A stretch of 64,000 bases of DNA from Escherichia phage CJY920. Shown here piece after piece: positions 22,899 through 60,060 of this stretch; within the stretch, counting starts at the first letter, position 1; each line of letters begins with the position of its first letter. Under the pieces are notes generated by a model. That model was given only the letters and a program-made list of their open reading frames with translations, was not told the origin of the DNA and did no database searches. The position numbers and the translations under genes were made by a program. Location: sequence record PQ349265.1. One strand, given 5' to 3'.

Positions 22899-27059
<4,161 letters not shown>

Positions 27060-52204: not shown

Positions 52205-52277
52205 TGGGAATTAGCCAAGTTGGTAAGGCATAGCACTTTGACTGCTAGATGCAAAGGTTCAAGTCCTTTATTCCCAG
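52205..52277 (+). tRNA. tRNA-Gln (anticodon TTG)
   Basis: Acceptor tgggaat/attccca; anticodon stem tagca/tgcta with loop ctTTGac; T-loop ttcaagt. Confidence 0.8.
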
Positions 52278-52278
52278 C

Positions 52279-52362
52279 GCGAGAATGGCCAAATTGGTAA
52301 AGGCACAGCACTTAAAATGCTGCGGAATGATTTCCTTGTGGGTTCGAGTCCCACTTCTCGTA
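52279..52362 (+). tRNA. tRNA-Leu (anticodon TAA), long variable arm
   Basis: Acceptor gcgagaa/ttctcgt; anticodon stem cagca/tgctg with loop ctTAAaa; T-loop ttcgagt; CCA encoded at 52363-52365. Confidence 0.8.
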
Positions 52363-52370
52363 CCAAATTT

Positions 52371-52442
<72 letters not shown>

Positions 52443-52454
52443 AAATTTAATTTA

Positions 52455-52527
52455 CTCCGTGTAGCTCAGTAGGTAGAGCACCTCACTTGTAATGAGGACG
52501 TCGGCGGTTCGATTCCGTCAATCAGCA
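52455..52527 (+). tRNA. tRNA-Thr-like (anticodon TGT) with non-complementary 5-prime acceptor strand; possible hybrid or pseudogene
   Basis: Canonical D, anticodon (cctca/ctTGTaa/tgagg) and T arms, but 5-prime ctccgtg cannot pair with 3-prime aatcagc. Confidence 0.5.
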
Positions 52528-52533
52528 TATCAA

Positions 52534-52607
52534 GGCCCTGTAGCTCAACGGTTAGCAGCAGTCCCCTCATAAGGGAAAGGTTACCAGTTCGAATCTGGTC
52601 TGGGTCA
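52534..52607 (+). tRNA. tRNA with CAT anticodon (Ile-2/Met type; T4 tRNA-Ile position)
   Basis: Acceptor ggccctg/ctgggtc (one U-U mismatch); anticodon loop ctCATaa; T arm accag-ttcgaat-ctggt; D stem imperfect. Confidence 0.6.
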
Positions 52608-52648: not shown

Positions 52649-53215
52649 ATGTTCCATTACACTTATAAAATAACAAATAAAATTAATAATAAAATTTATA
52701 TTGGTGTGCATTCTACCGAAAATTTAGATGATGGATATATGGGTTCTGGTAAATTATTAAAAAGAGCCCAAGATAAGTATGGTATAGAAAATTTTTCTAA
52801 AGAAATATTAGAGTATTTTGATGATAAAGAATCTATGCTTGAAGCCGAGAAAAATATTGTCACAGAAGAGTTTTTAAATAGATCAGATGTGTATAATTTA
52901 AAACTTGGCGGTGAAGGTGGATGGGACCATTTAAATATTCCTGGGATGCTAAACCGGAAGAAAGATGCTAGCTTAAAAGGAGCTAAATCGTTTAAGTCAC
53001 GGTTTGAAAATGATATTTTACTTCAAGAAAAATATCGTAAAATTGGTTCAAATGTATTTAAACGTTTGTGGTCAACTCCTGAATATAGGGAAAAATTTTT
53101 AAATAATAGCAGATTTTTAAATAAGCATCATACTCCTGAAACTATTAATAAAATGAAAGAAATTCACGCTAAAATAATCACCAGAAAGGAGAAAAGAATT
53201 CCCAATTTGGTATGA
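52649..53215 (+). CDS. segB: GIY-YIG homing endonuclease SegB-like (188 aa; apparent C-terminal continuation in another frame at 53212-53313)
   Basis: YTYKITNKINNKIYIGVH...GYMGSG core; WSTPEYREKF repeat; lies inside the tRNA cluster as T4 segB does. Confidence 0.75.
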   Translation: MFHYTYKITNKINNKIYIGVHSTENLDDGYMGSGKLLKRAQDKYGIENFSKEILEYFDDKESMLEAEKNIVTEEFLNRSDVYNLKLGGEGGWDHLNIPGMLNRKKDASLKGAKSFKSRFENDILLQEKYRKIGSNVFKRLWSTPEYREKFLNNSRFLNKHHTPETINKMKEIHAKIITRKEKRIPNLV

Positions 53216-53316: not shown

Positions 53317-53390
<74 letters not shown>

Positions 53391-56336: not shown

Positions 56337-56497
56337 ATAAAGTCAAATATTCGCTTCCTGAGTCATTTTTAATTTTTGCTGTGGCGTTGGCTGCAGCTCT
56401 TGCGGGTAGTCTTTTTGGATTATTAATTGACTGTCTTATTTTAAACATCGACGGCACAGTAAATATAATAGAAGTTTGGAGTGAACCGCTATACTAA
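56318..56497 (+). CDS. small membrane protein
   Basis: 59-aa ORF below the track cutoff; MQKPKLNKVKYSLPESFLIFAVALAAALAGSLFGLLIDCLIL... Confidence 0.35.
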   Translation: MQKPKLNKVKYSLPESFLIFAVALAAALAGSLFGLLIDCLILNIDGTVNIIEVWSEPLY

Positions 56498-56678: not shown

Positions 56679-57016
56679 TTTTAAAAACTCGCTGGTATGA
56701 TTTAGATGACGGGGATGATGGCATTTCAGTTGATAGAGTTGACTGGAATGGCTGTTCCGAAGATATGAAAAATTTGCTGATTAGGGAGTTTAGAATGGGA
56801 TATCAACCAGTTAAGCCATCTACTGCAACAGATGATAAATTCGTGTGTATTTATAATGGTCGCGCTAAGTTAACGAACGCTGATTGGTTCACAGATAAGA
56901 TTATGATTCTGTGGTATATTATTAGTCTTCCTGTGACATCATTCGTATTTTACTTTTTTTATAAAAAATCCAATGGACAGAATAGGAGATTGGATTCTTT
57001 TAACCATACTTGTTAA
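56675..57016 (+). CDS. hypothetical protein with C-terminal TM segment
   Basis: Track ORF starts at TTG 56660; ATG 56675 (ATGA overlap) gives 113 aa. Confidence 0.45.
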   Translation: MILKTRWYDLDDGDDGISVDRVDWNGCSEDMKNLLIREFRMGYQPVKPSTATDDKFVCIYNGRAKLTNADWFTDKIMILWYIISLPVTSFVFYFFYKKSNGQNRRLDSFNHTC

Positions 57017-58506: not shown

Positions 58507-58682
58507 CATGGGAACAACCTGGACCTCATGATTCTATGAGGGATTCCCGCCAACCTGTAATAAGGTCGAGCCCAAGTGCGGTAATGGGTAAATACAGAAA
58601 TGGACAATTCATGCGCCATGGAATGGCCCAAATTTAGAGAGAATAAAATGAGAACATTTTTAACTGGTCCTTATCTATCCTG

Positions 58683-59186
58683 ATGAATGCTTTTACACAC
58701 CATTCTGATGCTAGAGTAGAAGAAATTTGTAAAAACGATTATATCCCACCATTTGAAGACTTACTCAAGCAGTATTGCACACTTCGATTAGATGGTGGCA
58801 GACAATCCGGTAAATCAACTGCTGTGACTAACTTTGCTGCTAATTGGCTGTATGATGGTGGAACAGTTATTGTTCTTTCTAATACTTCAGCTTACGCTAA
58901 AATTTCTGCAGGCCACATTAAAAAAGAATTTTCTCGTTATTCTGGCGATGATATTCGATTCCGCTTATTTACCGATTCTGTCCGTAGTTTTATCGGTAAT
59001 AAAGGAAGCAAGTTCAGAGGTTTATCGCTTTCGCGGATTTTGTATATAATCGATGAGCCTGTTAAATCTCCTGATATGGATAAAATTTACGATATTCATA
59101 TTGAAACTGTGCACCACTGTTGCAATAGTAAATGCTGCATTGGTGGTATTACTCGTCCACAGTTTTTCATAATCGGAATGCAATGA
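58683..59186 (+). CDS. P-loop NTPase-like protein
   Basis: 167-aa ORF; Walker A GGRQSGKST and Walker B-like ILYIIDEP; weak RBS. Confidence 0.45.
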   Translation: MNAFTHHSDARVEEICKNDYIPPFEDLLKQYCTLRLDGGRQSGKSTAVTNFAANWLYDGGTVIVLSNTSAYAKISAGHIKKEFSRYSGDDIRFRLFTDSVRSFIGNKGSKFRGLSLSRILYIIDEPVKSPDMDKIYDIHIETVHHCCNSKCCIGGITRPQFFIIGMQ

Positions 59187-59512
59187 TGACAGACACGCAA
59201 CTTTTCGAATATCTTTATTTTTCGCCAAAAACTATTAAAAATAAATTGGTGAATCATTTTGAAATTTTGGCAAATAACAACGTCTTGAGCGAATTTTATC
59301 CTAAGCAATACAAATTACAAAAAGGCGTATTCAAAGGATGCAGAGTTTTGTGCACTGCTCCTAATGCAAGATTAATGAATAAAATTCCATATTTTACCAT
59401 GGAATTTATTGATGGGCCTTTTAAAGGACTAATTACCCAAAGTTTAATGGCATATGATTCTGAGCCATTTTTAATTAAAGAGCAATCTTGGATAAATTTA
59501 TTTTCTAATTGA
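59183..59512 (+). CDS. hypothetical protein
   Basis: Track ORF starts at 59132; ATGA overlap with the previous stop at 59183 gives 109 aa. Confidence 0.45.
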
Positions 59513-59520
59513 GAGGTTAT

Positions 59521-59884
59521 ATGAAAGCATATCAAATTCTTGAAGGCACGCATAAAGGTACTATTTATTTTGAAGACGGTATTCAAGCACGAATTATTGT
59601 CCTCTAAAACTTTTAAAGAGGACTCTTTTGTAGACCCAGAAATTTTCTATGGTTTGCATGCCCGTGAAATTGAAATTGAAACACAGCCTACAGTTAAAAT
59701 TGAGGGTGGTCAACACCTGAACGTTAACGTTCTGCGTCGTGAAACTCTGGAAGATGCAGTTAAGCATCCGGAAAAATATCCGCAGCTGACCATCCGTGTA
59801 TCCGGTTATGCAGTTCGCTTTAACTCTCTGACTCCGGAACAGCAGCGCGACGTTATCGCTCGTACCTTTACTGAGAGTCTGTAA
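59521..59884 (+). CDS. autonomous glycyl-radical cofactor (GrcA/YfiD-like), reading frame interrupted by an apparent 1-nt frameshift near 59600
   Basis: C-terminal [60 protein letters not shown] has the glycyl-radical motif RVSGYAV; ATG-initiated frame (59521-59607) stops after ...GIQARIIVL while the main frame (from 59540) has no ATG. Confidence 0.65.
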
Positions 59885-60060
59885 TGGCAAAGATAATTAT
59901 TGAAGGTTCTAAAGATGTGCTAAATGCTTTCGCCGAGTGGTTTAGTAATTCAGGCGAACAGCAATTTAATGAAGCATGGAACATGGGTGATATTAGTGGA
60001 ATTTATCCTACGACAGAAATTTCTGTTAGGGATATGGCATTCATGAACCTATTCGTTTAG
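59884..60060 (+). CDS. hypothetical small protein
   Basis: 58-aa ORF below the track cutoff; TAATG overlap with the preceding stop. Confidence 0.4.
   Translation: MAKIIIEGSKDVLNAFAEWFSNSGEQQFNEAWNMGDISGIYPTTEISVRDMAFMNLFV

Follow-up and report, generated by a model that had tools for sequence, protein, structure and literature searches.

The 64,000-nucleotide window analysed here, which was taken from Escherichia phage CJY920 (PQ349265.1), belongs to a Tequatrovirus (T4-like) genome and carries at positions 59521-59884 a copy of gene vs.6 that is interrupted by one inserted base. By synteny and sequence identity we assign this locus to a known gene, the ortholog of T4 vs.6 (protein Y06I, GrcA), present as a disrupted allele rather than as a different gene. 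The insertion is probably a real and very recent null mutation, a reading that we favor over a sequencing error. Coordinates given below refer to the plus strand of the window unless indicated otherwise. A 601-nt query around the locus matched 795 phage records, 483 of them with at least 95% identity and 640 covering at least 80% of the query. At the nucleotide level, vs.6 is 97-99% identical to hundreds of Tequatrovirus records, and most of the matched records label the gene 'autonomous glycyl radical cofactor', 'GrcA' or vs.6. The gene order vs.8-vs.7-vs.6-vs.5-vs.4-vs.3-regB is the same in the window and in T4, PP01, BP32, LYE-01, HP3, IME339 and Elenatom, with vs.6 flanked by vs.7 and vs.5 within the early gene cluster vs.8-regB in the window as in these seven relatives. 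The upstream neighbor vs.7 (59183-59512, 109 codons) is found where the relatives have it, and its protein is identical to vs.7 of BP32 and differs from that of T4 in 2 residues. A Shine-Dalgarno-like GAGAGG can be read at 59511-59516, 4 nt upstream of the vs.6 ATG. We read vs.6 in full in the seven relatives, and in 7/7 it forms an uninterrupted 363-nt, 120-codon open reading frame starting from the same ATG. From its ATG through the corresponding stop codon, the window copy measures 364 nt, and it is without the single 120-codon frame from the conserved ATG that marks its orthologous group.

We compared the protein encoded after removal of the extra base with known glycyl radical cofactors. 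This corrected protein is 100% identical to a common Tequatrovirus allele (122 contigs, RB68 being one example). It matches the Pfam family Gly_radical (PF01228) with E = 2e-18, and the 3' part of the gene does so with E = 1.2e-18, well above the gathering score. At its C-terminal end, the protein is identical in 60/60 positions to residues 68-127 of E. coli GrcA (BLASTP), a stretch that contains the RVSGYAV motif. Within this motif, a GGT codon at 59804-59806 specifies Gly-95, which by its sequence position and the alignment to GrcA corresponds to the radical-bearing glycine (Gly-102 in GrcA, Gly-734 in pyruvate formate-lyase (PFL); role from PMC8683613). The best NCBIfam match of the corrected protein is the GrcA equivalog TIGR04365 with 154.6 bits; divergence of the N-terminal half keeps this score under the 170-bit cut-off. 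E. coli GrcA itself scores 233.9 bits with this model, and a 95-residue remainder of the window gene scores 151 bits. The T4 protein (NP_049730, 'autonomous glycyl radical cofactor GrcA') shares with the window gene the position, the ATG, the 120-codon design and a chimeric build with a host-like 3' block, and it differs from the corrected window protein in 2 residues (T54P, R73H). T4 vs.6 is intact, whereas the window copy consists of a 28-codon frame and a start-less remainder of 93 codons, owing to the extra C at codon 27/28. GrcA-like genes also occur in Jiaodavirus JD18, Slopekvirus phiEap-3, Mosigvirus, the T5-like phages AKFV33 and SSP1, and Aeromonas, Vibrio and Erwinia phages, where they code for small stand-alone radical-domain proteins; in total, roughly 1,400 homologs were found in phages. 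The T4-like members among them have the same N terminus and the 120-residue length of vs.6, and unlike the window copy these genes of other phages are intact reading frames.

The lesion is an extra C at 59601/59602. We aligned the region with BP32, T4, Elenatom, IME339, HP3, LYE-01 and PP01; ATTATTGTCTCTAAAAC in the relatives corresponds to ATTATTGTCCTCTAAAAC in the window, such that GTCTCT has become GTCCTCT. The CC at 59601-59602 is a single C in all relatives compared, and the one-base insertion causes a frameshift. Codons 1-27 of the window gene are identical to those of the BP32, T4 and LYE-01 proteins. Because of the extra C, the frame that opens at the ATG stops after 28 codons, and this 5' fragment spans 59521-59607 with its premature TAA at 59605-59607. 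The 3' part, comprising codons 28-120 and the regular TAA (59882-59884), extends from 59603 to 59884 and contains the whole glycyl radical domain as defined by PF01228 and TIGR04365. Much of this had been anticipated by the original prediction, made from the DNA letters. It had described a phage GrcA/YfiD-like cofactor, which synteny, the 97-99% nucleotide identity and the PF01228 match bear out, with a C-terminal stretch of 60 residues matching host GrcA and carrying the radical motif, a frame ending 28 codons after the ATG at 59521, and a single-nucleotide indel within gtcctct, all of which we find. Its alignment of the N-terminal peptide to GrcA also holds (QARIIVSK in the phage, EARCIVAK in the host), and the comparisons with E. 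coli GrcA and T4 Y06I that it proposed gave the 60 identical C-terminal residues and the 2 differences from T4 noted above. It was mistaken in placing the rest of the gene in the -1 frame: a base has been gained, and the 3' part continues in the +1 frame (59521 is 1 mod 3 and 59603 is 2 mod 3). None of the relatives uses an internal non-ATG start codon matching the second frame, an arrangement that had been named as one that would speak against a broken gene; they use the same ATG, followed by 120 uninterrupted codons.

We next assessed how rare the insertion is. A megablast search with a 41-mer centered on the insertion found the extra C in 0/50,697 phage records. This query seeds only on records that contain the insertion, the low-complexity filter does not block it, as checked locally, and a positive control of the same kind, a query for a deletion at 58679, matched 7 records. 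The wild-type 91-nt stretch is present in 445 phage records, and the best identity of 98.9% corresponds to the single gap. An exact look-up of every possible product of the broken vs.6, and of the 58-residue vs.5 product described below, returned none in a collection of 15 billion proteins. An exact-pattern scan of IMG/VR for the mutant 24-mer gave 0 matches, and the wild-type control likewise gave 0, which makes this collection uninformative for the question. Thirty hits of an 18-mer in metagenome contigs were rejected, all being chance matches of about 20 nt without vs.6 homology.

The original prediction had left two explanations for the break, fresh inactivation or sequencing error; our analysis upholds this choice, and the context leans to a real mutation. 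The insertion perfects an inverted repeat, with its left arm GTCCTCT at 59599-59605 (GTC-TCT in the wild type) and its right arm AGAGGAC at 59617-59623, preceded by an 11-nt loop. The stem is a perfect 7 bp in the window; in the wild type a bulge divides it into 3+4 bp, and the hairpin formed by single-stranded DNA is calculated at -5.6 kcal/mol in the window versus -1.5 kcal/mol in the wild type. The inserted base is the one predicted by the opposite arm, as GTCCTCT is the exact complement of AGAGGAC. Random one-base insertions in the window land in a perfect stem of at least 7 bp with a loop of 3-20 nt in 2.3-2.7% of cases, a chance value of ~2.5% that, for a stem as short as 7 bp, is only suggestive. 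The insertion looks like a quasi-palindrome templated (template-switch) frameshift mutation, a mechanism first proposed from frameshifts in T4 rIIB and yeast CYC1 (Ripley 1982, as cited in PMC7202029). Here, the nascent strand would have switched template within the quasi-palindrome and copied the AGAGGAC arm, turning GTC-TCT into GTCCTCT. As in the rIIB and CYC1 cases and at the E. coli thyA hotspot, a one-base insertion raises the complementarity of the arms. Unlike in these known cases, the stem is short (7 bp with an 11-nt loop) and the event is deduced from a single sequence instead of a mutation spectrum, and unlike the thyA hotspot the insertion does not recur among sequenced phages.

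A second line of evidence comes from the distribution of indels along the window. In the structural genes between 1 and 50.9 kb, there are 315 homopolymer runs of at least 5 nt and 0 coding frameshifts relative to BP32, and the sole clean one-base difference from BP32 in this part is intergenic. The assembly is not indel-prone. Three one-base frameshifts proved to be private: a seg-like homing endonuclease gene has lost an A from an A-run (53171), vs.6 has gained a C (59601) and vs.5 has lost one (60028). All three are located in the dispensable 51-64 kb part. This confinement is as expected after selection and unlikely for uniformly distributed errors ((13/64)^3, ~0.008). Other phages carry such changes as well, and frameshift polymorphism is normal in this gene cluster. 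Five Shigella phages share with the window the loss of a C at the beginning of vs.8 (58679), and at 56954 a T7 run in place of T6 splits the reading frame of an e.2-like membrane protein, with the T7 form shared only with phage N2 (distant-mode search). A 2-nt deletion relative to the relatives is also seen at 56487 in an e.3-like reading frame. Like the change at 53171, the differences at 56487, 56954 and 58679 affect dispensable genes.

The third private frameshift affects the downstream neighbor vs.5 (59884-60060), whose ATG overlaps the vs.6 stop codon (TAATG, 59882-59886). Here, a C has been lost between 60027 and 60028, 1 nt after a perfect 14-nt palindrome ACAGAAATTTCTGT at 60013-60026, and the product is shortened to 58 residues instead of 73. 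A 41-mer test for this deletion, for which the filter was again checked, found it in 0/50,697 phage records. Templating from the palindrome was considered as its cause and rejected, since copying of the opposite arm would give another product. The T4 reference vs.5 is also 58 residues long, via a different one-base deletion near 59933, and is thus shifted relative to the majority form. The premature vs.6 stop may lower translation of vs.5, since the vs.5 start overlaps the vs.6 stop, and a polar effect of this kind, with a consequent relaxation of selection on vs.5, is possible.

The strongest alternative to a real mutation is an artefact, in which vs.6 of the phage would be an intact 120-codon gene, with the extra C and probably the missing C at 60028 being errors in the consensus. 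We regard this as possible rather than probable. The uniqueness of the extra-C allele among the 50,697 phage records and the absence of its products from the protein collection fit an error, as does the finding that removal of one base restores a protein identical to the common allele; that the corrected protein carries no further decay fits an error as well as it fits a very recent mutation. The 60028 deletion lies 427 nt from 59601 in the next gene, is a second private single-C indel and is unexplained by templating, and the pair could point to low assembly quality in this stretch. T-even DNA contains only modified cytosines, and some sequencing chemistries have difficulty with these. Against this, neither the 59601 nor the 60028 indel lies in a homopolymer run, the 315 runs of at least 5 nt in 50 kb of structural genes have come through without a coding frameshift relative to BP32, all private frameshifts fall in dispensable genes, and the base inserted at 59601 exactly perfects an inverted repeat, which random errors would do ~2.5% of the time. 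Odd vs.6 ends are found in other deposited genomes too: in vB-Eco-KMB39 the product is 76 residues long and ends before the radical glycine, and in vB_Eco_Some it is 126 residues long with a shifted C terminus. These aberrant products indicate that broken vs.6 alleles, or errors in the gene, recur sporadically.

If the insertion is real, the window vs.6 is most likely a null allele that would yield a 28-residue peptide without the radical domain and at most a trace of a reinitiation product, because the remaining 93 codons have neither an in-frame ATG nor a ribosome binding site. Neither ATG nor GTG occurs in the second frame. TTG is present at 59540, 59570, 59597 and 59654, each time with no Shine-Dalgarno sequence upstream. 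A Shine-Dalgarno-like AAGAGGA at 59616-59622 was considered as an internal ribosome binding site and discarded, as it is followed only by an out-of-frame TTG. Scans for promoters and terminators between 58.5 and 60.8 kb gave nothing above the shuffled expectation.

It appears very unlikely that the break is real and the gene still works, with the radical domain made as a shortened spare part by reinitiation at TTG 59597 or by low-level +1 slippage. This TTG has the correct phase and falls within the final codons of the short reading frame, 8 nt before its stop codon; the 95-residue product starting there would be the one that still reaches 151 bits with the GrcA model (TIGR04365). A YfiD fragment comprising residues 61-127 can still be activated in vitro, albeit fourfold less, with near-normal catalysis, but the binding of truncated YfiD to cleaved PFL was too weak to measure (PMC8683613). 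In the window, moreover, the in-frame TTG codons lack a Shine-Dalgarno sequence and AAGAGGA lacks an in-frame start, there is no slippery motif or stimulator and CUC UAA cannot re-pair in +1, and the arrangement is conserved in no relative. A programmed +1 frameshift, or two separate genes coding for a 28-residue peptide and a GrcA-domain protein, is scarcely credible as the normal design and was rejected, because apart from two overlapping frames that together encode the whole protein nothing speaks for it, every relative examined has a continuous reading frame from the same ATG (445 records are unshifted and 0/50,697 shifted), and AUU AUU GUC CUC UAA, judged by criteria reasoned from the prfB paradigm, offers no +1 re-pairing, no upstream Shine-Dalgarno-like stimulator and no frameshift signal. 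In annotation, the locus should accordingly be labeled as a disrupted (frameshifted) vs.6, and not as two hypothetical reading frames or as a truncated 'pyruvate formate-lyase'.

The function that would be lost with vs.6 can be outlined from its orthologs. T4 Y06I and E. coli YfiD/GrcA are the two validated 'spare part' proteins, on which PFL activase installs a glycyl radical and which, by binding to oxygen-cleaved PFL, make it active again (Wagner et al. 2001, as cited in PMC8683613). The same source accounts for the statement in the original prediction that T4 carries a YfiD homolog able to rescue oxygen-damaged PFL, this homolog being Y06I. By orthology, radical installation and PFL rescue can be attributed to the uninterrupted form of the window gene only. 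Intact vs.6 would yield a 120-residue protein, and the host activase PflA would place the radical on Gly-95 of its C-terminal domain. This domain would then plug into oxygen-cleaved PFL and restore the enzyme, which in turn could keep fermentative energy metabolism going in the infected cell at low oxygen. We found no in vivo test of the T4 spare-part protein in the literature searched. Loss of vs.6 would cost nothing during aerobic growth in the laboratory. If the lesion is real, the phage represents a natural vs.6-null strain whose comparison with close relatives could reveal the contribution of the spare part at low oxygen, and it would be a neat natural illustration, from a T-even phage, of frameshifting templated by a quasi-palindrome.

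The 3' half of vs.6 appears to be derived from the host. A block of 185 nt at 59700-59884 has a sharp 5' boundary and shares 98.4% DNA identity with E. coli grcA; upstream of the boundary, nucleotide identity to E. coli grcA is ~40-60%. Positions 180-364 of the query are matched in each of the 5,426 complete E. coli genomes that were searched, and the GC content is 0.49 in the block versus 0.34 in the 5' part of vs.6. The block is 97.3% identical to grcA of a second Escherichia species and at most 91% identical to that of every other genus tested, even where the 60 residues are identical. Its closest match is thus Escherichia grcA, which points to E. coli or something very close to it as the donor. 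At the protein level, the block corresponds approximately to the structured radical-bearing domain of E. coli GrcA (residues 61-127, PMC8683613), with which it shares the 60 identical C-terminal residues. The N-terminal half of E. coli GrcA is only distantly related, and that of the phage protein is AT-rich in its coding sequence and 7 residues shorter.

We compared the 3' blocks of phages infecting different hosts. The final 185 nt of the gene in E. coli phages (the window, T4 and a Mosigvirus) show 97-98% identity to E. coli grcA, and no other genus gives more than 91%. The 3' blocks of the GrcA-like genes in other phages are only 72-85% identical to E. coli grcA, and JD18 matches Klebsiella grcA instead: the block of this Klebsiella phage is 91-93% identical to Klebsiella grcA overall and 93-100% in the core, versus ~85% to E. 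coli. Reciprocal phage-host comparisons between E. coli and Klebsiella give ~85%. The JD18 block carries the Klebsiella-type residues LLDAVEH and LTSEQQ, and its 5' half is of the phage type, as in the E. coli phages. Two phage genera each matching their own host argue for independent replacement of the half that encodes the radical domain. On balance, we lean slightly toward a scenario in which host chromosomal DNA has replaced the 3' half of vs.6 on more than one occasion, such that the spare part tracks the grcA of its host. In the searchable literature, which leaves out much of the older T4 work, we found no discussion of such a replacement. A radical-domain patch that comes from the host and matches the present one is relevant to how phages maintain borrowed metabolic parts in a form compatible with host enzymes.

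Two further features of the window were observed outside the vs.8-regB cluster. Gene 17, coding for the terminase large subunit (22902-25754, minus strand), is split by ~1 kb (about 23967-24982) that BP32 lacks, an insertion common to 17 phage records. The N-terminal piece ends in MIYIDE|CVAKDTKV...AQK followed by a stop codon, the junction of the C-terminal piece reads VESHN|CAFIPNF, and a 206-residue reading frame after the N-terminal piece (24275-24895) contains TnsA-like and endonuclease I-like domains. No Pfam intein match was obtained at the insertion. Judged by its junctions, a Cys after the Walker B glutamate and an HN followed by Cys, the element resembles an intein interrupted by a free-standing endonuclease gene, comparable to the 'fractured gene' arrangement (Dassa 2009, PMC2677866). 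The tRNA cluster at 52205-52607 is shorter than in BP32 and Elenatom. ARAGORN reports tRNAs for Gln, Leu, Gly and Met, followed by Arg at 53317, and the Pro, Ser and Tyr tRNAs are absent from the cluster. At about 52455-52530, there is a tRNA-Thr-like body with the anticodon loop CTTGTAA, which is not called by ARAGORN and in which the 5' acceptor arm is unpaired with the 3' arm; it looks like a recombination or deletion remnant.
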